Source: Rhizaria sp. SCN 62-66
Lineage: Eukaryota
NCBI GenBank assembly: GCA_001724265.1
Contig: MEDY01000208.1
Coordinates: forward strand, 1 to 64,000
DNA: 64,000 nt
Reading direction: 5' to 3'
The notes beneath the pieces were generated by a model. The model worked only from the letters and a program-made list of their open reading frames with translations. It ran no database searches and was not told where the DNA came from. Below are positions 1 to 52,300 of the stretch, in pieces; within the stretch, counting starts at the first letter, position 1, and each line of letters starts with the position of its first letter. The position numbers and the translations under genes were made by a program.

Positions 1-1761
1 TCGTGTTTGTGCGCAAATGGTTAGCAATCTCACATTGTAGTTGCGCACTCTTCGACACCACCTGCCCCGTCCCTTCCGTTGGGGTTCTCAAAATATCACT
101 GCCAGCTTGGCAGACTAAAAGGATTACTACCTCTAGACCTTGAAAGAGAGTCTATTTGAGGACTGATCAGACAAAAGATATCCTCATAAGCCTACATTAC
201 AAGTAAAAAGGAAAAAATGGACTTGAAATATACCTCCGGACTATTATTAGATCTGATTTCCGTGGCCTAAGTTGTTGACGCCTCAAGCTCAACGACTTTG
301 TTGTTGCACAGCTTTAGTAACGGTCGTGATAGCACAGTAATGCAGCAAGCACCAAGATGTCAATGAAGCGTACTTTTCAGGCGCAATGCTTTCCTGTGTA
401 GAAATAAAAAGTGGCTACCTTTGTGGGATACACAAGCAATTTAGGTTGCACAACAACACAACATTGACATCATCTCGCTCGACGGAGTCGACGTCGAAGC
501 AAACAACTATAAACGAAGTCGACCTTGTATAAATCAAAATGTTACACAATTTGTGTATAAAGAATATAGTATATTTTTCATTTCTGCAATTGAATATCGC
601 CGTTGAATTTGAGGTCTATGACTGGAAAATTATTTTTTGATATGCTCATCTTTTATTTTCTTGCATTTAAAATTTGTTGATCGTCAAAACTTGCAACAAG
701 TTTTAAATGTACTTGATACATTGACTAAAATAATTTAAAATGTTGAAACAGTCATAAACAAGGACACATCATGCCTTGTCGAATTTCAACATAAAATGGC
801 GTGAGTCACAGACTTCGTATAAAGGGATTTCACGATGGGTGACTTCGAAGTTTGCGTTTCTTTAGCAAAGCATTTTCAGAAATAAAGGTTGCGTTCAATT
901 AAATGTTCTGATGCTATAGCTATGCTGAGCCTCAGCATATGTTACAACATATGTGATCATATTACGCATCTTGTCTGACATTTTACCACAGTTGCTTTGC
1001 TTGATGTTACAACACAGTTTACGAAGATATTAATGTCATAGGAGCTCTAGTTTCTACATTAACAGGGCAGAACGCGTGATGTAGTCGCTATCACGCAAGA
1101 TAGGCTATTATTTTGATTAATCTGTGTCATCATAAACGGTTTTTCAAGTCACATCGTGGTGTTATTCTCTGTCGTCGCTCTCACATAACTGAAAAACAAA
1201 GTGTTGCATGTGAGTCATTGAGCTACTGGGAACGCGTTTCGGCAGATTGGCATCTCAAACTCAACGTGCAGTGACTGGCTTATTCATATTCACCTAGATA
1301 CACTTGCGCTGGAGCCCTTACGATACGACTTGAATGCCCAACGGTTGAATGTAATCGCACAGAATACAAGATAACAGTACACTCAACAAAAATATGCACA
1401 GCATAGAATTTATCTTGTACATTAGTATCAGATTTGTAAATATGAACTGACAGTGATAATGTTTAGGACATGGAACAGCGGGAAATAAGGCATTTTGAGA
1501 TGAACACTTGGTAAAAAATCGTTTGTGGTGGAGCTTTCCTCGAGCTTTCTCCATATCTTTGACGCTCAGTTGTTCACTTCTACTCAATCGTCATGGATGG
1601 TTGTTGTATCGAATATTTGTAATACATCTTGTTTGAAGCCAGATTATTTCATGAAATCTATCTTACAAGATCAGTACACGTTGTAAGTCTCCATTTTGTC
1701 CTGCAGCCAGCAGCCGTTCAGTGCTGGCGTTGAGCTGCTGTTCTTTATCGCCACACACCCC

Positions 1762-4700
1762 ATGGCAGAGGATGGAGCTTTGTGGGTGACGGAGCTTATT
1801 AAGCCATCGAGCCACACACCCATGTACGGACCTGCGACTCCCACACCACCACAGCTGACCGTGTCATGCGCCCTGCTGCCGTCCGAGAGTAGTGCACCTC
1901 AAGAGCAACTCGCGTTGACTGCCGCGCCCCCTGCGTCTCGCGCCTGGCTCTCGGACCTCACTCCGTGCCCGCTCCCGGCGCTCGTTGCGGGCCCGCCGCT
2001 GTCTTCGCTCTACGCGAACGCGGACCTGCCGCCCGGCGTCGACGGCTCGGCCCGCTCGACGGCCACGGAGCTGTGCATGCGATTTGCCTTTCCGAGCGCT
2101 GCCTCGCACCCTGCGCTTAACACCGTACAGCTCCCCAGCGGCGTCCGCGCGGCGCCCGCCGCCGCCCCCGTGCTTGCACCGGGACTCGAGCTGCTTACTG
2201 ACCCCACGCGCGTGCGATGCGCGGCCTATGAGGCGCTCTACGCATGGTCTTCCAAAGCTTCAGTTTCTCCGCAGCCTCCACAGCAACCGCAACAGCAACA
2301 GCAACAGCACGAGCAACAGCGGCAGCTTGCGCTCTCGGCGTAGCATCAGTGGGAGCCTATACTACTCCTACCCGACGCCAAATTTCAGCCGAGACTGAGG
2401 CCGCAGTCACCGTATCTGCCGTCTCACTAGTCTTCGTCACCACTGTCCGCCGTATCATCTCTGTCCTCTGTGCCGTCTCTGTTGTCCGCGTCGTCGTCAC
2501 GACCGTCTCTATCGCCCCTGTCGCTGTCCCACTCATCATCGTCCCAGTCGCTGTCCAGACTGGCTATCCGCGCTTCACCCACGCTCGCGGCCGCACTCAC
2601 CGCCGCGCTCAAGCCAACACCTACACCAGCTCCTGCACCCGCGCCAACACACGCGCAAACGCAAGCGCCAGCGCACACTTCGGCACTTTCAGCGCCTTTC
2701 GCGCCTGCGCCCGTCGTGGCGCCCGTTGTTGCAGCATCCGCTGGCGCGGTCGCAGCGCCCGCTGTTGCAGTGCCAGCGGCCGCAGTACCCGCCGTCGCAG
2801 CGACCGCAGTTGTAGTGCCCCTGCCGCCGCGGTTGCCGTTGGTGCCGGCCGTGCCCGCGCGCGCGCCTGCCGCGGCCGCGCTGTCGCAATTCTTCGTCCA
2901 CCACGCGTTTAACACAAGGCTTTCGTGGGCGATGGTGACGCCGCCGGCGCACACGTCCCCGATGGTCCGCGCGATGAAGCGTTTCCTGCGGGCTCACGCT
3001 CGGCACCCTGACACCGCGCTGCTGCCGTTTGTCTTGGCGGAGCCCGACGACGCCAACACTGCCGCCATCTGCGCTCATAACGCCACTATGCGCACTGAGA
3101 ATACCACTGTGCGCACTGCGAATACCAATGATAGCGCTGGAGCTGGTATTCCCAGCGCTGCGAGCGTTCATGCCCCGACAGCACCGTCGCGGCCGCAGCC
3201 GACCGGCGCCGCCGCACTGGCGGGTCTTCTGCCCGCGTTGGCGCCCGGCGGGTCGACCGTCGTTGCACTTGACGCGCTGCTTAACGTGCACGCGCCTGCG
3301 GGGCTCACACCGTCTGCGGCGGAGGCGGCGGGTGCGCGGGCAGCGGCGGGCGCACGTAGAGCGGCGGCGCGTCACGCTGCCGCTGCTCAGCCGCAGGAGG
3401 CGAGTGTGCCGCGCCACCAGCAGGCGCAAGATGTTAATCCCGCGGCGATTGCGCAGGGCTGGGAGGCTGAGAAGAACGAGCGCGTGGCGGCGATGTTCGC
3501 GGCAATCATTGCGGATGCGGCCTCGGTCGCTGTGGAGTTGCTCGACGCAAACGCCGAGTCAGACGAAGAGGAGGTCGCACACACTGGCACTGACGTAAGC
3601 GGCGGTGAAAGCGCGCATCCCAGTGAGATGAGCGGTCATGAGTCATACGATGACTGCGCTGTTGTTGCCGACAGTGACGAGGATTGTGTTGAGGCCGTGT
3701 TTACTCCATCTGAGGTTGAATCCGGGTCACATTCACCAGCTGAGGATGCAAACGCGAGTCACAGTGCAAACGATGCGGGTGAAGATGGCTTTGCCACTCG
3801 CCAAGATGACAGTAGCCACTATAATGACTATGGCAGCGACAATGACGGTCATGTCGCTGGCGGGCTTGACCCTACTTGCGCGACTGCAGCTGAAGATGAT
3901 CCCGCCCGTGAGCACGAACACGACACAGGCGGCCTTGAGAGCGAGCATGCGAGTCGAAGCACCCGTGAGAGTGAAGGTGACCGCGCTAGTTTTGCTGACA
4001 ATATGGATGCGAGTGGCAATGCAAGTGCGGATGACAGTGGCAGTAGCAGTACGACTGATGCGGAGGTTGATGATGTTAGTTCGGATCGTGACAGTCCTAG
4101 TGCGAGTGCCAGCGCCAGCACGAGTCACAGCGACCATGACACTGACCGGTCTCGCGCGAGTGCCCGCGATGGTGAGAGTGCCAGCGCGAGTGAAAGTGAC
4201 GGCGACACCGACAACGGCAGCGACAGCAACTATGCCCGATACCTCTCATTTACGGCCAGGGCGACGCAGCGGGTCAAGGCCCGTATTGCCCGCGCGCTCC
4301 CGGCCGCCCGTGCCGCCGCCGCGCTGGCCCGTGCCTCGGCGGCCGCGGACAGCAGCACGGCCTCGCTCACTACTCTGGCCGCCGGCTCTGGCTTCACTGG
4401 CTCCGGCTCTGACCCCAACCCCGACGCAGATCTTGTTTCCGCCGAAGCTGCGGACGCTGCAGACGCCATGACCAGCCTGCGGTTTGCTACGCTGTGCTTC
4501 GGGACGGCGATGGCACAGCCGCTGTTTCTGGCGCTGCCGCGTGCCGCGCTGAGGCGCTTCCTGCGCTCCAGCGAGCTCAACTGCGGGAGCGAGTTTGCGC
4601 TGCTCCAGGCCGTGGTGCGCTGGGGCCGCTTCCGCCTGCGCGCGTATGGTCTTGACGACACGGACCCCGCGCTGGTGCGGCTCGAGCTGCATGATCTACT

Positions 4701-7560
4701 GCCGTTGATCCGCTTCGGCGCGATGACTGCGGACCAGATCGCGATTGTCACGCAGGGCGGCGCGCTGGCGGAGGACTTTGACGCCGCGCTCTTCCGCCGC
4801 TGCCGCGCCACCGATGTCATCCGGATGCCCGCCGAGTACATCGCGTGCGCGGACCACGTCACGTTTAATTATACGACACAGCCGCCGTCGTCGTTGCCGC
4901 CGCCGAGCTCCGAGTCAACCACTGGTGGTGGTGGTGGTGGTGGTGCTGCTGCTGCGACGGTGAAACCGCCAGCGTCAGGCCCGACGGAGAGTATGAAATA
5001 GCTGGCGCGTGACGACAAATTCCTCTCGGAGCTCCGGCCCCCGACAGCGGGGCTGGCGTGGTCGGCGGACGCGCCCACGGCGGCGGAGGTATACCTGCCT
5101 CGCTTCGCTGCCCCGCGCCGTCTTCGCCGCGATGCTGTGACAGACATTGATACAACAGCGGACCTAGACGCGCATTAGGAGACGACACCGCGCTGTCTGT
5201 TTACTGCCAGCGAGGTTCGGTCACTGCGCAGTCTCAGCGAGGCCGCCAACCGGGGCTGGGCCCCGCTGTTGCGCGCCACCGCGGCCGCCGCGTCGCAGGA
5301 CCACAACTTCGCGGTGCAACACCGCTCCGCAGCGGCCGCCGCACGTGATCGCAGCGCCGCGGCGCCGCGGCGCCGCCTTGTCGACTCGAGCGACGACGAC
5401 GACGACAGTGACAACGACGGCAACCGCGATGATGACGAACGCAGGCGCCGTGAGCGTGAAATCGCCACAGCGCCTTTGATGCCGCTGTTTATTCGCGCCG
5501 CGCCGCTGCTCCCGGGCGCTCTGGAGACGCTGTACCCTGCGGTGGAGGCCCAGCCGTTCTCCGGCTTTCGCTCTTGCTCTGGTGACGACGAGGAGACAGC
5601 GGGGGCGAAGGCGAGGGCCGCGGCTGCAGATAGCTTCACGCCGTGGGTGCTGCGCTGCGCGGGCGACTAGGCCACGACGGCGATCAGTCCCCCAGTCATT
5701 GTGTCGCACTCACAGACGCCCAGGGCGGCCGCGTCGCGGTTCGAAAGCCGTGCGCCAAAGTCGTACTCCGCGATTGTAGCCAATCTGCGCATGAGGCAGT
5801 GTCACATGGGCGGAACCGCTGCGATGCTGCGGCATCTGACCGCTGACGCTGAGAGCAAGATTCATCCCACGTCTCATCAGCTACCCAATTTGGCCACAAC
5901 ACCTGTGTTTACAGCAACGGCTCCGCCGATATGCGCAGAGGAGTTGAACACCGACGGAGAGCTCTCCGACTGCAGCCGAAGCGCTCATGGCGCGAGCGAG
6001 TCCGCGCATCAGTTGCCGCGCGTGCCACGTGTACCTGTGCTGTGCACGATGTACACACTGTCGGTACCTGTGACTACGCTCGCAAATCGCCCTGCTGACT
6101 GCCACAGCGCCTCGGCGACGCTGACTGTGCGCCACTGCTACGGCGCGTGCACAGGCATCAACACGAATTACTCAGATAACGGCGGTTTCGACTGCGGCTG
6201 CTCTGGCCCCGCGCCGCCGCTGCCACATGGCTGCGCGCGCGCTACGCTGGCGCTGCCCGGTGCGGCGTTTCTGCGGGCCCGCAACGCGCGCGCGGTGATG
6301 TGTGCGTGCGTGCGTGGCGTGCACTGGCCGCCCGAGGCGTTGCGCCGCGGCTCCTTTGAGCTGCTGCCGCTGATCGCGCTCCTGTGCGTTAGCTGCGGCC
6401 TCCTCCCGCGCATGGCCACGGTGTGGGGGCCGATGTTCCTTGGCGCCAGTCTCGACCGGCTCGCGCCGCCGGTGCTGCTCGCCGCACTCTCACGGCTGCT
6501 GCCCGTGGACCCCGGGGCGAGCGAGCCGCTGCCGAAGACGGGCCGCGTGCGGCCTGAGCAGCTGCACGGCGTGGCCAACGAGCTTGCGCGGCCGCTGGTC
6601 GGCCCGCTCGCGCCGTGGATGATACGCGCGCGCTGGGGCCTTGGCTGCATGGCGCGCGGTCTGCTCGGTCTGTCGTACACGCTCGTGACGACGCCCGCGC
6701 TGGGCACGCTCGCGGGCGTTCTTGCGCCGGGGCTGCACGGGACGTTCCTCATTCTCTACGGCGGCGTCGTGCACGAGGCGCTGCTTCGCTATGTCTCGCG
6801 CCAGCGCTACCGCAAGTCGACCTGGCGCGAGGCGCTGAGCGGGCTGCCCTGGCTGACACTCTCGGCCACGACAGCCTCGATCGCGCTTGTGCACATGAAG
6901 CTTGCGGGTGTGCTGGCGATATCAAGCACGGTCGCGCTGGCGCCCGCGATCGCCGTTGCCTCCGGGCTGCATCTGCTGCGCGGCACGGACTGGGTGCGGC
7001 GCTCTCCGTGGCGCGAGGCCGTGGTGCGTAACGAGATCGCGGACCGCTACGGGACGCTAATGTGCTTCACGCGCCTGCTCGCCGCGCTGGCGTTGCGCCA
7101 CATGCTCGCTGTGCGCTTCGACGGCGAGTCCGTGACGCCCGACATCATCCCGCGCCCGGTCAAGGACCTGCTGTGGGCGGGCACGTGGCCGATGCGCGCG
7201 CTGTTCACCTGGTCCTTCTCGTGGGACGGACTGCGCGGGGTTGCCGATGCCGTGCGCGCCGCGCTGCTCGCGCCGTGGGGCAGCGGCGACGCGGTGCGCT
7301 GGTACTCGCCGCTTTGCCAGCTGCCACGGCCCTACTACCGCGGCCTTGCGCGGCGGCTCAACCCGCTGCTGTGGCTGCGCAACTGGCTCAGCCCGCCGCG
7401 CATCTTCGCCGCGGTCCCGCTGCTCGAAGTGTATTTCGGCACCTCGCTGGCGCTCTCCAAGACGGACTTTGGCGACAGCGGTGACAACTCAACCGTCGAC
7501 AGAGATCCTATCGATATTGCAGCGCATTTGAATGTTGCTGTTACTTGCGCGTTTCCCTAA
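1762..7560 (+). CDS. Large BACK-domain protein (~1932 aa) with low-complexity regions and a hydrophobic multi-TM C-terminus. It is one reading frame only if five in-frame TAG codons are read as sense; otherwise a pseudogene.
   Basis: Track ORFs 1696-2343, 2470-5001, 5269-5670 and 5701-7560 share one frame. They are separated only by TAG at 2341, 2428, 4999, 5176 and 5668, with no TAA/TGA until TAA 7558-7560. BACK-like motif PLFLALPRAALRRFLRSSELNCGSEFALLQAVVRWG...LHDLLPLIRFGAMTADQI at ~4520-4745. The start ATG is tentative. Confidence 0.6.
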
Positions 7561-8693
7561 ATGCACAAACTGAGTGGTGACTAGCTAAGCTTTGCTCTTC
7601 GGTTCTGTTGCATGTAATACAGTACTACGGACTAGTTTTAACTTAAGCTTATCGATTTATAATATAAAGTAAGGATACATATGATTCGAGTGATTTAGCA
7701 ATATGTACGCGTACATAACTGTTGTTGTGGGATGCAAAGGTATGAGGTTGTGTATTGAGCGCTGCAAAACTGGCGCACGATTGTAATTGTGAAAAGAATG
7801 GGTGGTTTTGATGATACGATACGATACGATTGACTGTGCTACTACTATTGGTGAAGAACAACGACATGCGGTGTCGCGTTGCAGTGCGCGGGACTCTCTG
7901 TACCAGTGAGCTAGATACAGAGAAAGGTCCACCGCGCACTGGACGCAAATCAGAGAGACTGCGTACTGCGCGTGGTGCGAAAATCGCACTCCAGACAGGC
8001 AGTGTCTTCACCAAATCATCTCACACACACCACACACTAAACACACACAGATCTCGATGGATTTAAAACAACGGTTGTTGTGTTGAATATGAACTGAGAG
8101 AAAAACAGACAAAGAAGAACCTAAAATAATAACATTACTTTACTAAGGAAAGAAGGCAACAAGAGAACAAACAACGCGAGATAGATTTATCTCACATCTT
8201 CGTCTACACTTGTTGTTGGTGTCTACATACTTGCGACTCACACACGGTTGCTCTGTGAATGACGAACAACACAACCAGAGCGACATCGACAATCACGCCG
8301 AAAACGCGGGTCATCGTCATGTTCATCAAGTACTATTGCTGCAGCAGCTGCTGCTGTTGCTGTTGCTGTTGTCGCAGTAAAGAGAACTACCAAGACACGG
8401 AGGTATCAGATTAGCAAGCTCACGGTACTCAGCCCAAGAAAATAAGGACTTTGTAATAGAAACACATCGCAACACACGAACGTCAATACGAAGGACAGAG
8501 ACTCGCAAAGAGCGTTGTCTAGGAAAGCGCCTATGTGAGCGGAGAGTTTAAAAAGAAACATAATTCTGTGATGGCTTGCTGCGTTACACGCGGCGGGGAG
8601 GCAGTTCAGTTCAGCGCACTGCATTGGGATGATTTACACTACACCACAGTGCGACGCCTGCGCTGGTGGCGGCGGAGCGTCTCGCTGGCGCGC

Positions 8694-11186
8694 TTAGTAG
8701 TGGCGCTCAAGAACGTACCAGCCGAAGGAGCGGATCATGACCTTGTAGTACGAGTCCGGGATGGCGGCGTCGAGCAGCTTCCAGGCGTCCTCGACCATGT
8801 CGCGCGCCACCGCCGCGGAGCCCTCGATGGCGTCGACGGACTGCAGCTTCTGGATAAGCTTGCCCACCACGGCCGGGTCCTGGGGCTTGGTCTTGAGCAC
8901 GGACCAGAACTCGGTGCGGTCGGCGGCCGACAGCTTGGTCATGCCGAACGCGACGGGGTAGGTGACCTTGCCCTCGCGGAGGTCCTCGCCCTTGGTCTTA
9001 ACGTCGCCCTCGAAGCCCTTGAGGTTGAGCACGTCGTCGATGATCTGGAACGCGATGCCGATCGACTCCATGTACCGGCCGATGACCTCGATCTGCGTGG
9101 GCGTCGCGCCGCCGATGAGCGCGCCCATGCGCGCGAGGTTGCCGGCGGGAACGGCCGACTTGAGGCGGTGCGTGCACGTGACGGCGCGGAGCAGCTCCTG
9201 CGGGTCCTGCTCGCCAGAGCAGATGGCGTCCATGCGGTAGTCCTGGCCGTAGATGTCAAAGGCCTGGCCGGAGTGGCCCGCGCGCAGGGTGAGGAAGTAG
9301 AGCTCGTAGAGGCGCAGACGCATCTCGGGGGTCAGGTCGGGCGTGCGCGACTGGAGGACGTCCATGGCGAGGAAGTAGGCCGAGGTGCCGACGTTGATGG
9401 CGATGGGCTCGCCGTGCTTCAGGTGGCACGTGGGGCCGCCGCGGCGCGTGACCGACTTATCCTGGATGTCGTCGACGATGAGGGAGCCGACGTGCATGAG
9501 CTCGGGCATCGCGAGCCAGTGCTGGAACTTGAGCGAGTTGCCGCCGACGCAGTCGATGCAGAGCAGGCAGGCGTAGGAGCGCCAGGCCTTGCCGCCGCGG
9601 TCGATGATCTCGCGCATCGGCAGGATCATCGTGTCGTTAAAGACCTTGAGGTCGGCGCCGTCCATGTAGTGGTCGTTCTGCTTGTCGGCGAGCAGGTCAC
9701 GCGCCTGCTCGTACGTGGGGTTTAGCGGCATCACGTTGCGGACCTCGTCGCGGACGACATTGGAGATGATCTTGAAGAACTCATCAAGCGAGCCCGTGTC
9801 GCCGAATCCGTGGCGCTCGAGGAAGGCGTTACCCGTGACAGGGACGCCGTCGATGGAGCCCGTGACGCGCATGCGGCCCTCCCAGAAGGACGGCTTGGCG
9901 ATCAGAGTCATGATCTCCTGCTGCGGCATGATGGCCTCGAGCTGGAGGTCGATCTTGCCCGACGGCACGGTGAGCTTCCACGACAGCGGGTATTTGGCCG
10001 AGGAGCGGACCGAGGTCCAGAAGTTGGTGCCCTCGAGCTCGAGGTCGGGGTACTCGACGCGGGACGAGTCGGCGCCGATGACGATGGCGAAGTTGTCGTA
10101 GATCTCGCCAGTGCGCCAGTCGACGAGGTTCGTCGCAGTGATGTCGCGACCGTCCTCGAGCTGCATCGAGAACCAGTTCCACGCGTATGAGGCGTCCTTC
10201 TCAGCCTTGGACTCCTCCTCGACCTCGAGCTTGGGGGCGGCAGCGGGGGCGTCGGAGTCCGTTGCGGCGGCGCCAGCAGCGCCGGTGGTCGCGGTGGCGG
10301 CGGCGGCGCCGTCGGCGTCGGAGGCCTTGAGCTCCTCGTTGTGCTGCTTGGTGTAGACGTTGTCGCGGATGCCGCCGCCGAACTCGTGGTCGTACCACGC
10401 GGCGCCCGTGATGGGGATCTTGCGATCACCGAGCGTGATGGAACCCACCATCTGGTTGCGCGGGATGAAGTAGTAGAACATCGTCTCCTGCTTGACGCCG
10501 ACCTGGACGACGCCGCCGTGGCCCTGGCGGGTGGGCTTCTTCTGCGGAGTCAGCACGACCTCGAACGAGACCTTGGTGGTGGGGAAGTTGACACCCATCG
10601 AGTACGTGGTGTTGTCGGCGTTCTTGCGGAAGTAGTTGCCGTTGCCGTAGTCAAGGTTGAGCTCGGTGGTGGAGACAACGCAGGCCTTCTCCATGGGCAC
10701 GTCTGGAAGGGGGACATGGCCCTTGTTGGCGATCTCGAGCATGGCGCGCGCGAGACGCGAGTCGAGGTCGTACATGCCGTTCTCGAGCTGATACTTGAGC
10801 ACCTTGGGCGTCTCGGCGTCAACGTACGTGACGGGGTAGTAGGCCTTCTTGGCGACATCGAGGACGCCGCCGGAGAGAGCGTGAAGGTGCTGCGGGTTGC
10901 CGTCCTTGTCCTTGCCCTTGAAGACGCGGAAGAAGGACGCAAAGACGGAGAACTCGTTGCCTTCGGCGTCCTTGGCGTGCGAGTTGACGTACCACCACTC
11001 GGTGTTAGCGGAAGCGTGGGGCAGGTCCGCAGTCATGAGGTCGATGTCGCCCTCGGCGGCAGGCCAGTCGGACGGGCGGACGTAAGTCTTGTTCAAGGCC
11101 TCGGCGGTGGCGTGGGCCATGCGCTGACGCTTCTTGTCGTTGCCAATCAGCTCATCGGCAGGGCGCACCTGCTGGGTAGACGACAT
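8694..11186 (-). CDS. Fusion protein (830 aa): N-terminal AttH/CrtC-like (lipocalin-like double beta-barrel) domain plus C-terminal trans-prenyl diphosphate (GGPP-type) synthase
   Basis: N-part motifs: LPHASANTEWWY, AWYDHEFGG, YAWNWFSMQL, FWTSVRSSAKYPLSWKL, FWEGRMRVTG. C-part motifs: RGGKAWR, FARM LIVDDIQDKSVTRRG, GQAFD, SARM FQIIDDVLN, GEDLREGKVTYP. Intronless, strong C/G third-position bias, TAA stop. Confidence 0.9.
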   Translation of the reverse strand: MSSTQQVRPADELIGNDKKRQRMAHATAEALNKTYVRPSDWPAAEGDIDLMTADLPHASANTEWWYVNSHAKDAEGNEFSVFASFFRVFKGKDKDGNPQHLHALSGGVLDVAKKAYYPVTYVDAETPKVLKYQLENGMYDLDSRLARAMLEIANKGHVPLPDVPMEKACVVSTTELNLDYGNGNYFRKNADNTTYSMGVNFPTTKVSFEVVLTPQKKPTRQGHGGVVQVGVKQETMFYYFIPRNQMVGSITLGDRKIPITGAAWYDHEFGGGIRDNVYTKQHNEELKASDADGAAAATATTGAAGAAATDSDAPAAAPKLEVEEESKAEKDASYAWNWFSMQLEDGRDITATNLVDWRTGEIYDNFAIVIGADSSRVEYPDLELEGTNFWTSVRSSAKYPLSWKLTVPSGKIDLQLEAIMPQQEIMTLIAKPSFWEGRMRVTGSIDGVPVTGNAFLERHGFGDTGSLDEFFKIISNVVRDEVRNVMPLNPTYEQARDLLADKQNDHYMDGADLKVFNDTMILPMREIIDRGGKAWRSYACLLCIDCVGGNSLKFQHWLAMPELMHVGSLIVDDIQDKSVTRRGGPTCHLKHGEPIAINVGTSAYFLAMDVLQSRTPDLTPEMRLRLYELYFLTLRAGHSGQAFDIYGQDYRMDAICSGEQDPQELLRAVTCTHRLKSAVPAGNLARMGALIGGATPTQIEVIGRYMESIGIAFQIIDDVLNLKGFEGDVKTKGEDLREGKVTYPVAFGMTKLSAADRTEFWSVLKTKPQDPAVVGKLIQKLQSVDAIEGSAAVARDMVEDAWKLLDAAIPDSYYKVMIRSFGWYVLERHY

Positions 11187-13314
11187 TGTCTGTACGGAGT
11201 GTCAAAAACAAAGAAGGACAGGTGAGCGGACGCGAAACTGGAAATGGCGAACGACGGGCGGAGAGGGGGTTCGTCAGCGGAACTCGGAAGACCGCGTTAC
11301 ACGGGCAGGCGAACTTTGGGCACGATGAAAAAAGATATTTAAATAAAAAACAACTCGTTACATTTGGATCTTTAACTTTTTCGTCGGTTGAAAGAGCTTT
11401 CGGGCCTAATTTATGCAGGTGCGCGGGGTCGACGTCGACAGCCCTGCCTCCTGCCCCGTCGAGAGCTCGCAAAGTAAGGGCCAGGGACTGTGAGCACCGA
11501 AGACCGATCAGAGACTTTGGCTGGCGACGCGCCACTGGCGGCCAGCGCGCCGTGGGGCGACGGGCCATGCAGGCGCAGCGGCCACCCGCGCGATCTCGGC
11601 CAGATCTCCGTCAATAAAGGATCTAGCTTGGAATAACGGGATTTATTGCAGATTGCTCCGGATGACGCTTTAGATCCGTTCCGCATGGAGGGCTTGTTGC
11701 TCCTTCGCATCGCCCCAAAGGAGGCCCTTGCGAGTAGCAGATCAAACCATTTTGGAGAAGCAAATTAGATTCGCGTAGGATATCCTTTAAGTATATTATT
11801 ATCGCCGGCTGTTTTCATGCTGAGATTCAATTTTATCTCTTTCCGCGCTCATCTTGCCTGTCGAGCGGCGGGTTCCGGCGATGACCGTTTCCAATTCGTC
11901 ATCACCTCGATTTCCCGCGCCACTCCTGCCTGTGCTGCTGCTTGTCGCCGAGCGCGCGTCACAACACCGAAAGCTGCGCTGCACGCTACCGGCTGAAGTT
12001 TGCTTCTGATTGCGCACGGTGACGCTGCTTCACTGCGTGGTTGCGCGGCGACAGAGCTGTTCGGCCATATACCGACGAAGGGTGCGGATTGCTGGGTGGT
12101 GCGTGGTCTCGCTGCTATCAACCCGCGCGTGAAGACTGCAACGTGCGATTTTATCGCAGTTTTTGACTGCAGACAATGCCTTAGAGCTATTATTAGTAAA
12201 CACGGACGCATTTTTTATTCGATGTCGATATTCGCGTGGGTGCTGCGGATGAAACGGTGACTCCGCCTGAGAATGACGTAAGATTTGTCCTGCTCGATTG
12301 GACTGCAAGTGATATTTTTTGTTGCCTAAGTGATATTTTGAGACTCGAACTGTAGACGAAGGCTGGGTATATGGTGATTTCAACTGATCGTTTTAGTATT
12401 CATGAACGATATTGTCAGTTACTGTGTTGAGATATGATGCTTTCGTTCTGGGGCACTTCAGTCGCCGCTATTTAAGACGCGTCGCTCGAGTTAGAATGAA
12501 CTTTATGTTGTCCTGCGGGATGTTCACATCGATGTGTAGAACCTATCTTCGTCTGTGCTTGCCACTATTTGAGTTCATTCGCAATTGGACGCTCCTACGA
12601 CTCGCTGTCAAGTACTATGACGCCATACTGAAGAACGAAGAACAACCGTATCCGAGGCCGCGGCAATTTGAGGTACTTGAAGATACATAATTAGCATTGG
12701 AGACTGGAAATAAAGCACTATCGGATACCTGGCCCTTAAGTGGCAGGTGGGTACAGGGGAGCGCTGCCGAGATACACTTCGTTATTTTCAAGTTCTGGAG
12801 GGCGACAACGAGCCTCACAGCGTGTCGACTTCAAGCTTGAAGAAAGTACCGTGACATGACTTATACGCGATATATATTTGGATTGTAGTGGGATATTCTA
12901 GTGTATCCAAGTCGAATTTACTCAAAATGCAAATTTCAGATTTTCTATAAGCATTCTTAGCGCACGCAAAGTGACTTGACGTGACACGAGGAGCAGCGGG
13001 GGTGTTACGAGCTTCACAAGTAACGTATTTTCAAACCTAATTGGGGACCTTCTCTGACCGTCAATGAGGCAGAGACACGCAAATTCAGGGGAACTAGCAT
13101 GTTTTATATGCTATATATAGTCATTTATTTTCGCCCTGCTGGTTCTCGGAGCGACGTAGACACTACCAACGTCGCCGACCGAAGTTGGGGTCGGGACCGA
13201 AGTTGACGTCGTAATTTTTGTTTCTCACACCGAGTTTTTTCCTGTATTGCCTTGACTATGCACCGCCTAGGAGGTGCGTCGTACAACTCGACCGGCATTC
13301 ACTCTCCACTCCAG

Positions 13315-15996
13315 ATGGACGACTCTGACTCGCCCCCTTCGCTGCTGAAGCTGGCGGAGGTGTCAACGACTTTGCCCGTGCGCTCTGAGCTCTGCGCAGA
13401 ACCGTTGCGGGTACTCACAACGCGCGTCCTCGTGTATGACGAAGCCTCGGACAGCGAGGCCGCATTGCCTTGGATTCTGCGCAAGGACCCGCTCAACGGC
13501 GGCTACAAGTATATTGTTCTGTTTGCCTCAACAGTGACCATGCTTGCGTTTTCGTCCGTGCTCTCGGGCTCTGTGTATATCATTCCACTCGAGGACGAGT
13601 TCTCGCTCACGCGCTCCGACGCCTCGCTCTTCGTCTCGCTCTCGCTGGGCATCTTCTGCGCCGCGACAATTTTCATCTCCAAGATTGCTGACCGCATCGG
13701 CATGTACGCCACCACGGTCATCGGCTACCTCGCACTCTGTCTGGGCTACTTCGTGCCGTCGTTCCTGCACTCGTACGGCGGCGTGCTGGGCGTGTACATC
13801 GCCTTCATCGGGCTCGGCGCCGCCGCGCTGCAGATGATGCCGATGCTCTTCGTCCAGGACTGGTTCGAGCCGCAGGGCCGCGTGGGCTTCGCGCTCGGCG
13901 TCTCTCTCTCCGCCGTCGGCCTCGGTAACATCGTCATGACGCTCTACATGGAGCACTTCATCGACACGGCATCCTGGCGCGTCTCGCTCCGCTACATGGC
14001 GCTGCTCACGCTCGCGCTGGGTGTCGTCTCGCTCGCCGCCCTCCGCGCGCGCGCGCTGCACCCGCACCGCCAGCGCGGGCTTGCACTCGCCGCCGTCTCT
14101 CTCTTCCGCGCCGCGCTGCACGGCGGCGACGCGGCCGTGCGCGCGCCGCCCGCGTGCTGCCCGCCCGGCGCCGCGCTGCACCACTGCCTCGGCCACCAAC
14201 CGCCTGCGCCCGCCGTTGCCGCCGCCGCTGCCGCGAGCGCGGGCGCGCGCGCGGGCGGCGTGACTGGCGGCGGCGTGCGCCACGAGCTAGACTGCTCGTA
14301 CCCCGGCTTCGAGGCACTCCGCGCGCACGCCGACGTCGTCGCCGCAGGCCCCGCGCAGCCGCACGAGGTCTCCGCCACGGCCACCGTCGCTGTCGCCGCC
14401 GGCGCCGCCCCCGGGGCGGGCCCGCGGCAGTCGCCGGCTGCGGTGTGGCTGAAGGACGCGGAGCTGGATGACGTGGACACCACCGCCGCGGAGGCCGCCG
14501 CAGAGGCGCTGCACGATGGGCTGACCGCGGGCGAGCCTTTCTTCCGCGTGAGCATGTTCTACCGTCCGCGGTTTGTGCTGTTCTTTGTCGCCGCGCTTGT
14601 CGGCACGTTCAACTTCTACTTGCCGACGGTGCACTTGGTGCCACACGCGGAGGATATGGGCGTCGGCGACCCGTCTTTCTTGCTTATCATCATGGGTATC
14701 GTCACGATTTGCTCGCGTATCATCTTTGGGCTTGCCGCAGACCGCATTGGTGGCGTTAACGTGTACACCATCGCGTGCACACTGCAGCTCGCGCTCATGA
14801 TACTCTGGCGCTACTCGACCACTACCGCGCACTTCCAGGTACGTTTGGAAAGAATCTTCGGAATTGTTTAATTGTTTCACTCTGTCCCGCTGCAACATTT
14901 TTTTTTGCGTTGAATCTACTGTATTTCATTGAATTATCTTCTGTTGCATGTATCTACATGTGTTTCAACACAATTGGATATCAGTTCACAACTTGCAATT
15001 CTGATGCACTCTATTCGATCTTACTTTGGCTTTTTTTTTGCTGCTCAGGCTGTGGCCGCGATGTACGGCTGCGTCGGTGGCGCGTACATTGTTGGTATCA
15101 CGGCCACAATTCGCATGATGAGCTTGCCGATCGAGCTGTCGAACTCAATGGACTGGGTGCTGGGCGTTGGTTTCGCCCCCGGCGCGACGCTGGGTGGCCC
15201 CATCACGGGCTGGGCCTACGCTGCCGAGAACGAAAACTACGTCCCCGTGCTCACGGGCTTCACCATCTCGTCCGCCATCTCCGTCGCTATCATGCTCGTG
15301 CTCGCGCTCTACAAGCCGCGCGCCAACACCCCGCGGCCGCCGCAGCCGCGGGCCGTGGCGACGGACTCCGCGGCCGTTTCGCTGCACGGCGGCGCGGCCT
15401 TCTCCGGCGACGACGCCGCGCGCTTGGAAGCCGCCCGGCCCTTAGACGCCGCACCGGCGCCCACGGTGGACATGCCCGCGCGCCGCCCGCCGCTCGCGTC
15501 GCGCATTGGCGCCTTTAACGACGACGGATCACACTCGGACGCGCACTCGGAGACCAACTCGGACGCGCCTCTCGACGCCACCGCGGGCGCCACGGGCGCT
15601 GCTGCGTTGTCCTCGACGAGCTCTGCGCACACCAGCGAGGGCGATATCGTGCGCAAGCCAATCGGCGCGCGTTCGTCGAGCGATATCTCAATCGCGATGA
15701 CTGACGGCTCGGGCTCCGGCTCCGGCTCTGTTGCCGGCACTGCCTCTGTTGCTGAGGGCCAGAGTGGGCTGACCAAGAGCTCGACCGCTAAGTCGACAGG
15801 CACCCTGAGTCCCGCGGGTTCCACGGTTGGTGAGCATTCGCTGGCGCCAGTGCTGGTGAAGTCCGAGTACATGTCGGGTCGCATGTATATCTCACGTGTT
15901 CTCTCGCTTTTGCGCACAATGGCCGTGCGCAGCGCCCGGGCGAGCAAGCTCGCGGCCACGGCGCCGAGGGACTCCACGGCCGCTCCACCAGTCTGA
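13315..15996 (+). CDS. MFS transporter, monocarboxylate porter (SLC16/MCT-like), ~823 aa; exons 13315-14838 and 15049-15996
   Basis: Two hydrophobic helix bundles with MFS motif A variants (SKIADRIG, GLAADRIG), QDWF..RVGFALG and FNFYLPTVHLVPHA. Intron CAG|GTACGT...CTCAG (14839-15048, AT-rich, phase 0) joins track ORFs 13252-14871 and 14929-15996. An alternative upstream ATG lies at 13258. Confidence 0.85.
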
Positions 15997-16852
15997 GTTC
16001 TAGGACCTGCGTCTTTCATTACACAACTGCGCTCTCAGTCAATCAGTCAATCGCGCGTTGCGCAACGCAGAAGTTGAAGTGCTGTTCGCGCATGACTCGC
16101 ACCAACCATATCATGATTTCAAACTGTTCTTCATTACCACTTTCTTCATACTTGTTTGGGAATTAATATTATGTCTGTCACCAGCAATCTTTAGGCTTCT
16201 CTTTATTCATGACTCAAGTTTGTCTTCGCTCAGTGCTTCGGCATGTCTGCCTTTAAAATCTCCATGCTGGCACACTATTTGTTAATGCAGCTGTTCGTTC
16301 AACTACTTGACATATGACTGTCTTCTGCGACCTTTCCTCTATCTATTAATCTCTTGTACATTACAACAACAATAACAACAATAGCAGCAACAACAACAAC
16401 AAAAATTGTCCTGACATTGTCACATCATATCGTCACTGTTACTGTGTAAGGATGCTGAGATCCTCCTCGTTGTCACGCAAGCGCGGATACACTGACATGA
16501 TGACACTATACTCAGTCAGCGCGCTGAGTGTTGTCTGCAGTGTGTGTCTGTGCCCTTCAGACAGGTCTTTGGTCTGTAAACACAGCGCGGCCCATCTCAC
16601 GCATGTACACGTGATTGCGCCTGCGACAGAGTCTGTCTAAAACAACGACGTCGTGGTAACGGCACCGGCCATTTGAACTGTTTTTAACGAATGTTCTCGC
16701 TTGTAGGAGAACGGATTAACACACGATTCATACAAATTTCAACACTATGATATTCACACTCAAGATCACAACTGATTGACCTTCACGGCAGACAGCAGTC
16801 GACCCGCGCGATGCCACTCAATCGCTTTTGTCACATGCACTAAACACTGCGC

Positions 16853-17449
16853 TCAACCCTCGCGGTCGAGCCGCGCAAGCTCCGCCGCCAGGTCAAACTT
16901 CCCAGCGTTAGCGTTGTTGCTCTTGTTGATACGGTCGAGATCTTTCTCAGTGAGAATGCCCACCACCAGCGGCTTCTCAGCACCAGCGCCTGCGCCCGAG
17001 TCAGCCGCAAACTCTGCCTCTTGCGCCTCGTGGCCGTAGCGCTCGCGCAGGTGGCGGTAGCGCTTGAAGCGCGCGCGGCCCTGCTCCTCGCGCAAGTGCC
17101 AGCGGCCCTCAACCACGGCTGCGCGAACAGCGGCGTCGTCCGTCAGGTGCGCGTGCTTCGCCAGCTCGCGGCGCGCGGCCGCGCGGAGGTAGTCGGGGTC
17201 GTAGTGGTCGCGGGTGAAAAGCGCCACGCGCTGAGGCGGGTGGTGCGGGCGAGGTCGGGGTGTGAGCGTAACGGAGTTTGGTCAGAAGATGTGAGAAGGA
17301 GGTCAGCGAAGGATTTCGAGAGAGATCTGTCACGCACATTCTAGCAAAAAGTAATACAAACAACTAGATCACCGCATACTACGCACCTTGAGAAGGTCTT
17401 TAACCATAGCCTTGGTCTTGGCGGTCACGGGCGTGGGGGCAGCGGACAT
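16853..17449 (-). CDS. ETFRF1: LYR-motif protein, ETFRF1/LYRM5-like, 146 aa; exons 17449-17387 and 17230-16853
   Basis: Spliced product MSAAPTPVTAKTKAMVKDLLK|RVALFTRDHYDPDYLRAAARRELAKHAHLTDDAAVRAAVVEGRWHLREEQGRARFKRYRHLRERY fits the LYRM5 pattern (LYK..L...RDY...; KYR.MK.RY). Intron AAG|GTGCGT...TCAG, 156 nt. Confidence 0.7.
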
Positions 17450-18288
17450 GGCTGCAGAAGCAAAGTGTGGTGCTGCTTGGATAAGAAGGGATCTATGGAG
17501 GTAAAACAAGTCCTATGAAGCATAAGGCAACACAATTTTAATGTTAGATCAATGGGCAGTGACGTGCATCCACGTGCAGTTCTAGTTAGCGACAAAATCC
17601 ACCTCTGCACCGCTAAGTGGACGACGTTCGCGGCAGCCAATCATCACAGCAAAGATATTTGTGAAAAATATGGGTAGCGCTTGATATTTGCGTTCACAGA
17701 AGATGTAATTTTGGAAACATATACAATTACGCGCATGAGTTTCAGATCGAGGCAGGGAAAGGGTATTGACGAAGAAAGTCAACGGATTTTTATGTTATTA
17801 AGGAGCTCTTTTGCACAGGTTGGGGAGACACAGCAGTGACAGCGCACCGCACGAACAACTAGAATAACGAGATGACACATTATACAGATTCATTTCGCCT
17901 AGAATTAGTAAAGAGGGGATTGATATTGAGTTAATGCACCACTAGATAGTACTACGCGGTCTTCATGACCCGCGCGACGAAACATAACATAATTGGACGC
18001 CTCAGGACGTCTCGGTAGCACCAGCGACTGCGCGCAGCTGCGCACCAAACGAGGACGCCCCTTGCTGAAGACGCGACAAGGCCGCGGGGGCAAACGCACC
18101 GGTGCTAGGGCTGATGCCGCTGTCAGGGGAGCGATTATTAGCAATGACGCCATTATCTGCGAAGACACAACCGCTGCTAACTTTGTGGTCGGCAGCGTGA
18201 GCGCGGAGGAGAGCAAAGCCGTCATCACTTGCAGCATTCACGCGCTCAACCAACCTGTAGTGCGCCCGCCTGCTCTGCGACAGCTTAC

Positions 18289-20906
18289 TCAAGCCTTTGA
18301 CGCAAGGTAGGCCTCGTGGTCGGCGCGTGTCGCCAGGCGCGCGCCCTCCTGCCCAATCTGCGTGCGCAGACACTCGAACCCGAAGCTCTGCATCGAGCTC
18401 TCGAGCGCGCTCACCGGATCCATCACAGCGGCGGCGTCGGTCGAGGCAGAGGCGGCGGCGGCGGCGGGCGCGGCGGTAGGGACTGCGGCGACGGGACCCG
18501 TGGCGGCGCGGGACGGAGCAGAGACCGACGCACTCGCGGAGCCGCTGAGCGGACTAGGGCTGGGGCTCGGGCTGCTGCCACGCTCGCTGGACCCGCCCTC
18601 GGAGGCCGCAGTCGCGGGCGCGGGGCACGTTGTCGGCGCGCCCGCAAACACCGCGCCCGCGATCGCCGCAGGCGGGGGCTGCGCGCGGCCGCTGCCGTTG
18701 CCCGCGGCGGCGGCGGCGGCGGCGGCGGCGGCTGCGCGCTCTGAGGCGGGTTCGTGGATGAGCGAGGGCGCCGACGTGAGCGCAACTGCGGCCAGCGCGG
18801 AGGCCGACGCGCCGGCGCTGGAGCCCGAGGAGAGCGCGGACAGGGACGCCGCGGACGGGATCGTGGGCAGTGTGAGCGCGATGGTGCTCAGAGCGCTGCG
18901 CTTGAGGCCCGTGGTGGAGCCAGACTGCGCGCGCACGGGCTCGTACGCCTTGAGTGCCACACGGCCGCTCGCGGGGCCGCCGTTGGCGGCGCCGGCACCA
19001 GCCCCGGCGGCGGCGGCGCCGGAGGCGAACTCGGTGATGGCGGAGCGCGGGCTGGTGACGCCGCCGCTGCTGCTGGCGACGGAGGATGCGCCGTCGAGCG
19101 CGGGCACGACCTGCCCTGCGGCCGAAGCGAGCGCGCTCTTCTTGTTGACGAGCGGGGGCAGTAACGTGATTGCGCAGCCGCCGCCGCCGGCGCCAGTGAG
19201 CTTGGTGGGCATGCTCATGGCCTCCGCGCAGCGCACGACACGGTCCAGCGCGGGGTGCCCCACGCCCAGCAGCGTCAGCAGCTCGTGGTTCTTGCTCAGC
19301 AGCGGGCCTACGCACTTAAAGAAGCCCTGCGCCAGCGCGGGAGCTGGCGGGCCGACGCGCGCCGGTACGAGACCAGCGGCTGGCCATCGGCGTCAACGAC
19401 CGGCATCGCGGTGGCGTCGGCGTCGGCGCTGTCGTCGCTGTCGTCATCGTCATCATCGTCGTCGTCGTCGTCGTCGTCGTTGTCGAAGTCGATGGCGTCG
19501 TCGTCGTCGTCACTCTCGCTGTCATCGGGACCCAGCCGGTCATCGCGGCGGTCCTTGGCCTCCGCGGCCTCTGCGGCGGCGAGCTGCTTGCGCGCGCGCG
19601 CGATGGCGGCGTCTGCGTCCCCGGCGACGCGCTGGAAGGCGGCGGCAAACTCGCGGTCCGCGTCGGGCGATGATGGCACCGCGGCGGCGGCGGCGTCCGA
19701 GTCGAGTCCGGCCACCCCTGCGAGCCTGCAGTAGGCCTTGATGGCCGAGACGACGCGCGTGGCGATGCCGTCGATGGCCATGAAGACGGGCGTCGCCACC
19801 TCGGGCATCGCGGCCTTGAGCGCGGCCACGCGCGCCACGAGTTGCCGCGTGTCCTTGGGCACGCGCGTATTCGTGATCACGAGTTCCACAGACGGGGGGA
19901 TGCAGCCGGACGGTAGGAAATGCATCACAGGCTGCACCGGCGCAACGACGGACGCAGCAGGGGCCGATGCCACAGCAGCGAAGGCAGGAGTGACCGCCGG
20001 AGTGCTGATGCAGTCCTTGCTGTTACTGTTCGCCGCGCTGGCGGAGGCGTGCGCAGTGGGGTGGCACTGGCGCGTGGCGCTGACGACGGTGTCGAACAGG
20101 CGCGCGGCGGCCTCCGCGGGGTGCTCCATGCGGCGGCGAAAGACGACGACGCCGCCATAGACGCAGACGGTGTTGTCGAGCCCCGAGCACACGCCGTGCA
20201 CGAGGCGCTCGCCCTCGTACGCCCACGCGTTGACCAGCGCGCGGTCCAGCGCCACGGCCGCGGGGCTCTCGGGCGCCGCGGCGGTCGGCGCGGCCGCCGT
20301 CGGCGCAGTGGCGCGGCAGAGCGCGAAGAAGCCTGTGGCGAGCGCAGAGCAAAACGACGCCGAGGAGCCCAGACCGGAGCCGATGGGGAGGTCCGAGGTG
20401 ATGGAGACCGACATGGCGTGCGCGGCGCGCGACATAAGCAGGCAAAGCATGAGAAAGATCTGCGCAGGCGCGGCGTCGTGCAGCCGGCCGCCGTTGGCGC
20501 GGATCTGCTCCATGCGCGCAGCCACTTGCGCGGGCGGCGCGGCGGGCAGCGGTGTCAGCGTCAGCACACTAGGGACCGCGTCGAAGTTGTCGCGGACATA
20601 GTCCACCGCGGCAGCCATCTCGGCCGGCGAGGACAGAACAGCGTCAATGTCCCAGGCCGAAGGGAAGAGCGCGTCGAGCTGCTGGCGCGTCTGCTCCAGG
20701 TCCGACAGGCGCCAGGTGCGGGCGATGTGAAGTTCCTTATCGCTGTGGGCGAAGGAAACCGTCGTCGGGTCGTTCGAAGGCTAAAAGTCAGCGTACGTGC
20801 GACGGTCAACCACGGCCGCAATGGCATGTGAGCCGTGCACGACGCTGTGTTCACCGGAAAGAATCATCTTTCCGGGTGCCGAGGCCACAAAAGGTTCGAA
20901 GTACAT
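18289..20906 (-). CDS. MVK: Mevalonate kinase (GHMP family), ~870 aa with long insertions; contains an in-frame TAG at codon 42 and one frameshift around 19310-19395
   Basis: ATG 20906 gives [25 protein letters not shown] (GHMP motif 1), followed by [36 protein letters not shown] and [10 protein letters not shown]. After the frameshift come [20 protein letters not shown] and [13 protein letters not shown] stop. Confidence 0.9.
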
Positions 20907-21376: not shown

Positions 21377-22894
21377 TCACAGCTCGTCCTTGTTCTCCTT
21401 GCCGATCTTTGACGTATCAACCTTGCGCGCCTCGGCGGGCTTGGGTACGTAATCGCCCTCGTCAGCCTCTGCGCTGCCCAAGAACGCGTTGGTGAGCCCT
21501 TTCTCGGCCGCCGCGTTGACCATGCGACGCCACACGCGGTCCAGCTTCGCCTCGTTCTCCGCCTTGGCCCAAAAGCCCGCGTCGTGCCACTCGGCAAACA
21601 GCGCGCCGTGGCCCAGCTCCTCAGCAGCGCCCAGCGCGAGCTCAACCCAGCTCCACACCGCTGGCGACGCCGTGTCGCGGAAGGTACCCGCGAGCTCGCG
21701 TACGCTCGAGCGGCCGCCGTGCAGCCGCAGCGCCATCTTGGGCGTGTGCTTGCGCCCCACGGGGTGGTACGACAGCGCGGACCCGTGCACCGTGTCGAGA
21801 GGCGCGGGCATCTGGTTCGCGCGGACGTTGATGACGCCGATAACTGGTTCCGTGAAACCCTTGGCCAGGCGCGCCAGAACGCGGACCGTGGGGTAGAGTG
21901 CCTCATGTACGCCGTCCTCAGCCGCGTCGGGGTCCTCCGCGCACGCCATGCGCTCGGACGCCGCGGTCGGCGCGGACGTAAAGCCGATGGCGGGGTCACG
22001 GAAGCACTCGCCCTGGGGCGCAGCGTAGTATAACAGCAGCTCGCGGTGCTCGGTGTTGGCGCCATCGTGGCCCAGCAGGAAAGGGAAGATGGTCGCGCCG
22101 ACCAGAATGTGGGGCTCGCCGGGGTTCACGTCGGGAGGGAAGCGCACGTGCGGCACGTGCTACGGCGCGAAAAAAAGCAAGAACAACGATACGGGATGAG
22201 GATCGAGTTACAAATATGAGAAGATATCGCATTAGGAGCTGATATGATCACCACAGGAGCAATTGAAGAGATTCTGTGAACTTACCTGCGTCTGTTGGTC
22301 GTAGGTCTGCTGAACACGGGCAATCTCGCTCTGCGCGTCGACTTCCGGCAAGTCTTCGAGCTTGCAGACGTTGAGTGTGTTGGCGCAGAGCTCGCGGGCC
22401 AGCCACTGCGACGACTCGATGAGGTCGACCATGTAAATCATCTTGGCCTCCTCGCTGAGCCCGTCCATGGTCTTGAGCCCGGCGCGCGGGTTCGCCTCGT
22501 AGACGTCCTTGGCGGTCGTCCAGGAGGACAGGAACGCGACAACATCATCAGTGCTGGCGAGAAGCAGGTCCTCGCAGGCCGCGATCTGGGCCGGGCGAGA
22601 CTGCACCTGCGCAGACTGGCAGCCGCGCGAGACGGCGTCCTCGAGGAATTCGGCGATCTCGCCCTTGGACGTGCGCGCAGAGTGGGCGCCCGCCGCGCGC
22701 AGCTCGGCCGCGCGGGCACGCATGTCCTTGAGGCGAGGAATTGTATCTTCGTTCAAGCTGCGCACAAGGTTGCGGCACGCCTCGCAGCGGTCAGTCGTGC
22801 CAACGCGCGTGCGGCGAGGCTTCGCGGCAAGGACGGCCGGGATCAAAAGACCCAGGAAGAGCAGAATGAGAACGCGACGGGAGAAACGAACCAT
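21377..22894 (-). CDS. ER-lumenal protein (463 aa): signal peptide, saposin-B/Canopy-like domain, thioredoxin-like domain, C-terminal KDEL; exons 22894-22286 and 22159-21377
   Basis: Signal MVRFSRRVLILLFLGLLIPAVLAA. Six-Cys pattern CEAC...GC...AC...LC...VC. PDI-like segments ILVGATIFPFLL, ELLLYYAAPQGEC and VIGVINVRANQMP. Ends ENKDEL*. Intron CAG|GTAAGT...CGTAG, 126 nt, phase 0. Confidence 0.75.

Positions 22895-52266: not shown

Positions 52267-52300
<34 letters not shown>

Follow-up and report, generated by a model that had tools for sequence, protein, structure and literature searches.

In-frame TAG codons in a GC-rich rhizarian contig point to UAG as a probable sense codon

Introduction

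The first 64,000 nucleotides of contig MEDY01000208.1 (GenBank assembly GCA_001724265.1, Rhizaria sp. SCN 62-66), hereafter the window, carry a coding frame of 5.8 kb (1762-7560, + strand) that opens with ATG at 1762, closes with TAA at 7558-7560 and includes five in-frame TAG codons among its 1,932 codons. The probable reading is that this organism decodes UAG as an amino acid and keeps UAA and UGA as terminators, and that this target frame is one live gene. We adopt it because the gene for mevalonate kinase in the same window also carries an in-frame TAG, because none of the 17 terminators that could be assigned is a TAG, and because TAG is the only stop codon found within the target frame. 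The analysis shows directly that TAGs lie in frame, that the target is organised as a single gene and that the window lacks TAG terminators; that TAG is decoded at all, and as which residue, is what we infer from this.

A 5.8-kb Frame Interrupted by TAG Alone

Translated in full, 1762-7560 (+) meets in-frame stops at 2341, 2428, 4999, 5176 and 5668, every one of them TAG. An earlier note on this DNA had described a 5.8-kb frame broken by five TAGs only, and its positions and quoted peptide contexts match our retranslation; it had counted four open reading frames (ORFs), where the five TAGs actually divide the frame into six pieces. Its remark that frameshifts, TAA and TGA are lacking holds, with neither codon present in the 1,932 codons before the terminal TAA, and so does the absence of an AT-rich, intron-like gap, the lowest GC content of any 60-nt window around the five TAGs being at least 0.52. 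Within 1762-7557 the five stops of the target frame compare with 34 and 79 in the remaining two forward frames (41 and 86 across 1500-7700), and the target frame is strongly stop-depleted relative to them.

A block of ~0.65-0.72 GC coincides with the frame at both ends, flanked by DNA of ~0.42 GC; GC at first codon positions (GC1, 0.67-0.69) exceeds that at second positions (GC2, 0.56-0.59), and GC at third positions (GC3) is 0.84-0.94 in the C-terminal domain. Under a codon model that was trained on the window's other genes, five of the six segments delimited by the TAGs come out as coding in frame 0, with log-likelihood ratios of +16 to +403; the 28-codon piece between the first and second TAG (TAG1 and TAG2) does not. 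The possibility that the target is an antisense shadow of a gene on the other strand was considered and ruled out by the excess of GC1 over GC2, a match to the BACK domain, a colinear homologue and the fragmentation of the minus-strand frames.

The Encoded Protein and Its Only Detected Relative

The last ORF (629 aa) was used as query in an exhaustive search, made without profiles, of 1.84 billion representatives; besides the protein itself it found a sole relative, P0008, an uninterrupted protein of 1,492 aa. Four parts of the target recur in P0008 in colinear order: a BACK-like domain, a linker segment, a hydrophobic C-terminal domain and the extreme C-terminus. The BACK-like domain (4435-4806, +; residues 892-1015) is the best conserved part, with 54% identity to P0008 (BLASTP, E = 5e-35), and it matches Pfam PF07707 (BACK) at 22.3 bits in the target (E = 1.4e-4), 23.5 bits on the sub-ORF and 24.7 bits in P0008, against a cut-off of 20.9. 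In BTB/BACK-domain proteins the BACK domain is usually preceded by BTB; neither BTB nor Kelch was matched at E <= 1. The linker segment (5065-5448, +; residues 1102-1229), in which motifs common to P0008 flank the fourth TAG (TAG4), is covered by a colinear BLASTP high-scoring segment pair (E = 0.017) and was also aligned with MAFFT. The hydrophobic C-terminal domain (6460-7437, +; residues 1567-1892) is homologous to the C-terminus of P0008, with 28% identity across 356 columns. Since P0008 carries the pieces split by TAG3, TAG4 and TAG5 colinear in a single protein, these pieces are taken as parts of one protein, and the earlier view of the region as one gene is borne out by a colinearity that spans TAG3 to TAG5.

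The predicted protein consists of a long, acidic Ala/Pro/Ser-rich N-terminal half, the BACK-like domain and a Leu/Ala-rich C-terminal domain with at least two strongly hydrophobic segments (residues 1530-1548 and 1707-1733); it is rich in Ala, Ser, Pro and Asp overall. The structure predicted for the C-terminal ORF has low confidence (pLDDT 0.36), and Atlas searches returned no fold. BACK is the only family found for the target. A search with the C-terminal domain matched only the target protein itself, a word-index search with residues 880-1932, saturated by low-complexity words, gave no match, and a scan of genome contigs with an alignment as query gave 47 pattern matches, none of which was confirmed as a relative.

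The Five TAGs and the Introns of the Window

Three real introns were read from homology and frame in other genes of the window: 165 nt in the Vps54 gene (50529-50693, -), 168 nt in a gene for a kinase with EF-hands (42635-42802, +) and 126 nt in a gene whose product ends in KDEL (22160-22285, -). They have CAG/GTRMGT donors, a T-rich tract before YAG (T fraction 0.44-0.52) and a GC content of 0.32-0.42. All three are 3n in length with in-frame stops, the chance of all three being 3n amounting to 1 in 27. No intron with this set of features (AT-richness, a T-rich acceptor, a CAG/GTRMGT donor) lies at any of the five TAGs of the target.

Only TAG3 to TAG5 are firmly exonic. TAG3 (4999-5001, +; codon 1080) lies in the linker past the BACK domain, in a stretch with no P0008 counterpart in the alignment; its local frame-0 score is positive, and the T fraction of 0.12 upstream of it is not acceptor-like. 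TAG4 (5176-5178, +; codon 1139) lies where the P0008-conserved motifs ...EVYLPRFAAP... and ...P.R.LFT... fall within 24 residues, and the residue opposite it in P0008 is Q by BLASTP or A by MAFFT. TAG5 (5668-5670, +; codon 1303) has positive local coding scores and stands opposite L of P0008 in two different low-confidence alignments. For these three codons the upstream T fraction is 0.12-0.16, no GTRMGW donor is in reach, and every GT..AG span has a GC content of at least 0.50. A 90-nt intron at 5089-5178, raised in the earlier note as a partial alternative for TAG4, would delete the motif AAEVYLPRFAAP, which is common to P0008, and the tract upstream of its 3′ end is not acceptor-like; it is rejected here.

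The exonic status of TAG1 (2341-2343, +; codon 194, nine codons past a poly-Gln tract) and TAG2 (2428-2430, +; codon 223) is uncertain. TAG1 lies inside a candidate intron of 219 nt, again 3n (2212-2430, +; cgc/GTGCGA...CTCACTAG/T), of which TAG2 could be the YAG 3′ end, so that splicing would remove both. The tract upstream of TAG2, TATCTGCCGTCTCACTAG, has a pyrimidine fraction of 0.64 and a T fraction of 0.24. The GC content of the candidate is 0.59, versus 0.32-0.42 in the three real introns, and its coding-versus-noncoding score (-23.6 over 73 codons) falls between real-intron and real-exon values. The frame-0 score is negative at ~2212-2480, frame +2 scores higher at ~2450-2700, and all three forward frames are open across 2399-2909; 2212-2909 (+) is a low-complexity Ser/Pro/Ala stretch of the target. 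Each TAG has 6 to 34 frame-preserving GT..AG spans around it, and a GTRMGW donor is within reach of TAG1 only.

A Second TAG-Bearing Gene Encodes Mevalonate Kinase

The mevalonate kinase gene (18289-20906, -) retains all three family motifs intact and contains one in-frame TAG and one frame switch. Its TAG (20781-20783, -; codon 42) lies between the conserved N-terminal ATP-site motif (SAPGK..GEH) and the rest of the enzyme. The alignment to the human, rat and three other solved mevalonate kinases passes through codon 42 without a break (query 3-93 to human 3-86), and the score against the PDB is 104.1 bits with the TAG read through and 74.9 bits otherwise. The column opposite codon 42 holds Q in the human enzyme, R in the rat enzyme, and T and S besides, the Methanosarcina enzymes having a gap there, and is polar in four of the five aligned solved homologues, the fifth being the gap. 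The codon usage of the gene is typical of the window, 0% and 1% of its 81 scoring windows being negative.

The frame switch (19327-19373, -) may reflect an odd intron, in the form of a 47-nt GT..AG span of 0.81 GC, an indel or a frameshift. The frame changes there between the N-terminal part and the exon with GHMP_kinases_C and KLTGAGGGG, and the only phase-correct short join is this GC-rich span, which is unlike the real introns; enumeration of 324 possible GT/GC..AG joins gave none that is AT-rich and none that is convincing. A second apparent TAG at 19308-19310 is out of frame, given the frame of the C-terminal exon, and was excluded from the counts below.

Stop Codon Usage Across the Window

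Stop codons were counted in a confident set of 14,687 codons in 18 genes, the regions 14914-16034 and 55457-57141 being left out of all counts; the region 16844-17515 and a gene running off the window were also excluded from the terminators. The set contains six in-frame TAGs, no TAA and no TGA, in-frame TAG making up ~0.04% of codons. Among the terminators of 17 genes, a small sample, there are 11 TAA, six TGA and no TAG. If TAG normally ends 25-15% of genes, the share assumed here, the chance of finding none in 17 is P = 0.0075-0.063. TAA ends 11 of the 17 genes despite third positions that are 74-93% GC, and the same dominance of TAA among terminators is reported for two UAG-reassigned protists (PMC5304391). 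TAGs near the starts of the WD40 gene, the EF-hand gene and the gene at 57.6 kb were also considered; they lie in AT-rich leaders and are not coding.

Proposed Decoding of UAG

The organism would be a GC-rich, intron-poor eukaryote in which UAG specifies an amino acid and UAA and UGA are kept as stops. The target would be an intact gene for a fast-evolving, largely disordered protein with BACK-like and hydrophobic C-terminal domains, its TAGs being rare sense codons built up in weakly constrained linkers. A tRNA with a CUA anticodon would decode UAG, in the simplest case a tRNA-Gln that arose from the isoacceptor with anticodon CUG, while recognition of UAG by eRF1 would be poor. The low usage of the codon (6 of 14,687) suggests a reassignment that is recent or inefficiently decoded. 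We tentatively entertain the narrower proposal of an early-stage, low-usage, UAG-only reassignment, in which UAG has gone as a terminator and is only beginning to return with a sense meaning, chiefly within a single fast-evolving gene; if true, the window would offer a snapshot of nuclear codon capture in progress.

Which amino acid UAG would specify is a matter of guesswork. The simplest guess is glutamine, since a single transition separates TAG from CAG and Gln is the commonest outcome elsewhere, and we give it about an even chance; leucine is rather unlikely, and the remaining amino acids taken together are somewhat less unlikely than leucine. Two TAG sites are well flanked by homology, codon 42 of mevalonate kinase and TAG4; close homology does not flank the remaining four. 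The earlier note expected Gln codons at these positions in orthologues; the underlying idea that TAG is decoded gains support from the mevalonate kinase TAG and from the 0 of 17 terminators.

Weighing the Alternatives

Several observations count against decoding of UAG as an amino acid, or narrow the base on which it stands. The evidence consists of six codons in 64 kb, found in two of the 18 genes, and five of the six are in the target, although only 13% of the codons belong to it (P = 2e-4 if usage is uniform); measured against Gln codons, the clustering gives a Fisher p of 5e-5. The other 17 genes (~12,750 codons) contain only one TAG, and three long low-complexity proteins have none. No gene in the window looks less coding-like than the target: in leave-one-out scoring, 19% and 21% of its 191 scoring windows are negative, against 0-9% and 0-19% for the other genes. 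This suits a gene that is weakly expressed, evolves fast and puts up with a poor codon, and it also suits a dying gene. No one residue recurs opposite the TAGs (Q, R, T, S or a gap in mevalonate kinase; Q or A, and L, in P0008). If the frame switch in mevalonate kinase is a true frameshift, that gene may be dead too, and the strongest single witness would then lose weight. Removal of TAG1 and TAG2 by the 219-nt intron at 2212-2430, though unlikely, carries enough weight to be reckoned with. The 64-kb window contains no tRNA gene and no Rfam match, and no eRF1 gene was found among its ORFs scanned with Pfam.

Decay under the standard code, with five TAGs arising by chance in a pseudogene and the mevalonate kinase TAG as a separate lesion in a dead or dying gene, draws on the clustering of five of the six TAGs in the target, on its codon bias, the weakest in the window, and on the frame switch for which no convincing intron was found. 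With the codon usage of the target, moreover, 55-56% of single-base nonsense mutations yield TAG, and five out of five by chance has P = 0.052-0.056, falling to ~0.03 for six out of six (0.55^6). Nonsense changes make up 2.1-2.3% of point mutations in the target, so that five of them imply ~214-241 substitutions; under assumed indel-to-substitution ratios of 0.03-0.1, 4.5-17 frameshifting indels would be expected in the 5.8 kb, and none is seen (P(0) <= 0.011). The earlier argument that decay would have left TAA, TGA or indels is accordingly weak as regards the other stop codons (P ~0.055) and stronger as regards the missing frameshifts. Several premature stops in one gene and relaxed codon usage do resemble a processed or unitary pseudogene, from which the target differs in having no frameshift, one stop type, full-length colinearity with a homologue and independent support from the window for a sense TAG. 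Decay also fits poorly with the GC3 of 0.84-0.94 retained in the C-terminal domain, with the intact motifs and typical codon usage of mevalonate kinase, and with the 0 of 17 TAG terminators, and it would be unusual for a compact region to have two of its 18 genes dead; we regard this explanation as unlikely. C-to-T hypermutation of the kind caused by repeat-induced point mutation was examined as a source of TAGs and rejected, TpA/ApT (0.63) and (CpA+TpG)/(ApC+GpT) (1.23) both being within the range of the other genes. A somewhat smaller likelihood attaches to an ambiguous UAG: a suppressor or near-cognate tRNA would read efficiently through a leaky stop, which would be avoided as a terminator and give both truncated and full-length products. 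It would suit the very low sense usage (6 of 14,687) and the shunning of TAG both within genes and at gene ends, and context-dependent codes are known in ciliates and Blastocrithidia. Against it, any inefficiency would multiply across five serial UAGs, as the earlier note had rightly argued in calling five read-throughs implausible; none of the six downstream contexts has a known read-through motif such as CARYYA, and nothing in the window is a positive sign that UAG ever terminates.

The remaining two explanations would take the TAGs out of the mature message or out of the genome. Removal of all five by atypical, GC-rich 3n introns, some ending in TAG, has some basis in the three confirmed introns, which are all 3n with in-frame stops; in the 219-nt candidate, whose GTGCGA donor and pyrimidine-rich TAG acceptor enclose TAG1 and TAG2 where coding signal is absent; in the 47-nt GC-rich GT..AG span that would mend the mevalonate kinase frame; and in the 6-34 frame-preserving spans available per TAG. 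It is nevertheless very improbable for the set as a whole, since TAG3 to TAG5 combine a GC content of at least 0.50 and T fractions of 0.12-0.16 with no GTRMGW donor, where real introns have 0.32-0.42 GC and 0.44-0.52 T; TAG4 sits between P0008-conserved motifs just 24 residues apart, coding scores are positive around TAG3 and TAG5, and the mevalonate kinase TAG is not intronic, since the alignment passes through it. An artefact of sequencing, assembly or base calling, such as systematic C-to-T errors or a chimeric assembly, could account for the frame switch as an indel error, and deserves hardly any credence as a source of the TAGs: stops and frameshifts are otherwise absent from ~14,700 codons in 18 genes, the database-predicted proteins P0007 and P0001 are identical on five and four contigs, respectively, and six independent errors that all make an in-frame TAG are not credible.

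The restriction of the breaks to TAG is in itself less remarkable than it seems, because 55-56% of nonsense mutations are TAG and because shadow frames commonly show the same pattern. Where an antisense frame has its third positions in common with those of a GC3-rich gene, it acquires TAG through NNC/TAY and almost never TAA or TGA. Examples in the window are frames at 8572-10788 (+), with 17 TAGs, antisense to the polyprenyl synthase gene; 13302-14867 (-), with eight; 58264-59775 (-), with seven; and 38007-39848 (-), the shadow of a Thr/Ser-rich protein of secreted type. Such frames are a trap when DNA is scanned for TAG-only frames.

Comparison With Known UAG Reassignments

Nuclear codes that give UAG and UAA different meanings are known from only a handful of lineages (PMC5304391, PMC11687900). 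In the rhizarian exLh (Sainouroidea) UAG encodes Leu: 384 in-frame UAGs were counted in 71 genes, with UAA (56) and UGA (15) but no UAG as terminators, UAG is the commonest Leu codon in proteasome genes, and its abundance differs strongly between gene classes, which was taken as a sign of inefficient decoding (PMC5304391). The window resembles exLh in that genes are interrupted by UAG alone (terminators here being 11 TAA, six TGA and no TAG), in that TAG5 is opposite Leu in P0008 in two weak alignments, and in the uneven usage of UAG between genes, although the clustering here exceeds the degree documented for exLh. It differs in that UAG is heavily used in exLh and rare here, and in that the mevalonate kinase site, polar in four of five solved homologues with a gap in the fifth, does not favour Leu.

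Reassignment of UAG alone to Gln is described for Iotanema spirale (Fornicata) and some phyllopharyngean ciliates (PMC5304391, PMC11687900). As in these organisms, in-frame UAG is nuclear here, UAA and UGA are kept as terminators with UAA dominant, and the well-aligned mevalonate kinase site falls in a polar column that holds Q in the human enzyme. The required decoder of their codes is a tRNA with a CUA anticodon. Unlike the window, with six sites and ~0.04% of codons, they have hundreds of UAGs at conserved Gln positions, and the genome here is GC-rich with AT-rich spliceosomal introns. Codes in which both UAA and UAG (UAR) specify Gln occur in ciliates, Hexamita, Streblomastix, ulvophytes and Amoeboaphelidium (PMC11687900); they share with the window a stop turned sense, TAG lying one transition from CAG, and differ in that TAA here terminates 11 of 17 genes and is never in frame.

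The kind of system is therefore known, and as a case this one may be new. Apart from exLh and Iotanema, the literature covered yielded no report of a nuclear code that reassigns UAG only in a GC-rich eukaryote outside the ciliates, and the code proposed here could still have been reported already. If true, a GC-rich case with sparse UAG would bear on how reassignment begins, whether by a codon lost as a stop and then returning or through an ambiguous phase. Gene callers that apply the standard code split such genes, and the proteins of this organism appear fragmented in public catalogues, because the database predictions P0007 and P0001 begin after a TAG or end within an intron.

Other Genes of the Window

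About 18 recognisable eukaryotic genes lie on both strands of the window, including those for polyprenyl synthase, a major facilitator superfamily (MFS) transporter, mevalonate kinase, a tRNA methyltransferase, Nop53, adenylate kinase, a kinase with four EF-hands and Vps54, with an exon GC3 of 0.74-0.93. The Vps54 gene (48975-54095, -) appears as a frame of 1,706 codons with a single TAA, and this TAA sits in the 165-nt AT-rich intron; the database prediction for Vps54, P0001, enters the intron and stops there. The polyprenyl synthase gene (8694-11186, -) is fused to CrtC and lipocalin-like domains, and the nearest clusters with this polyprenyl synthase-CrtC-lipocalin architecture are bacterial, mostly Myxococcota; acquisition of the fusion gene by gene transfer is possible. 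The gene at 41624-43378 (+) links a protein kinase domain across one intron to four EF-hands, in an architecture of the calcium-dependent protein kinase (CDPK) type, and this gene and the mevalonate pathway enzyme may help to place the organism. Two regions, 14914-16034 and 55457-57141, are repetitive and of low complexity, with candidate ORFs open on both strands. In the latter, the minus-strand ORF 56200-57030 begins with a signal-peptide-like sequence.

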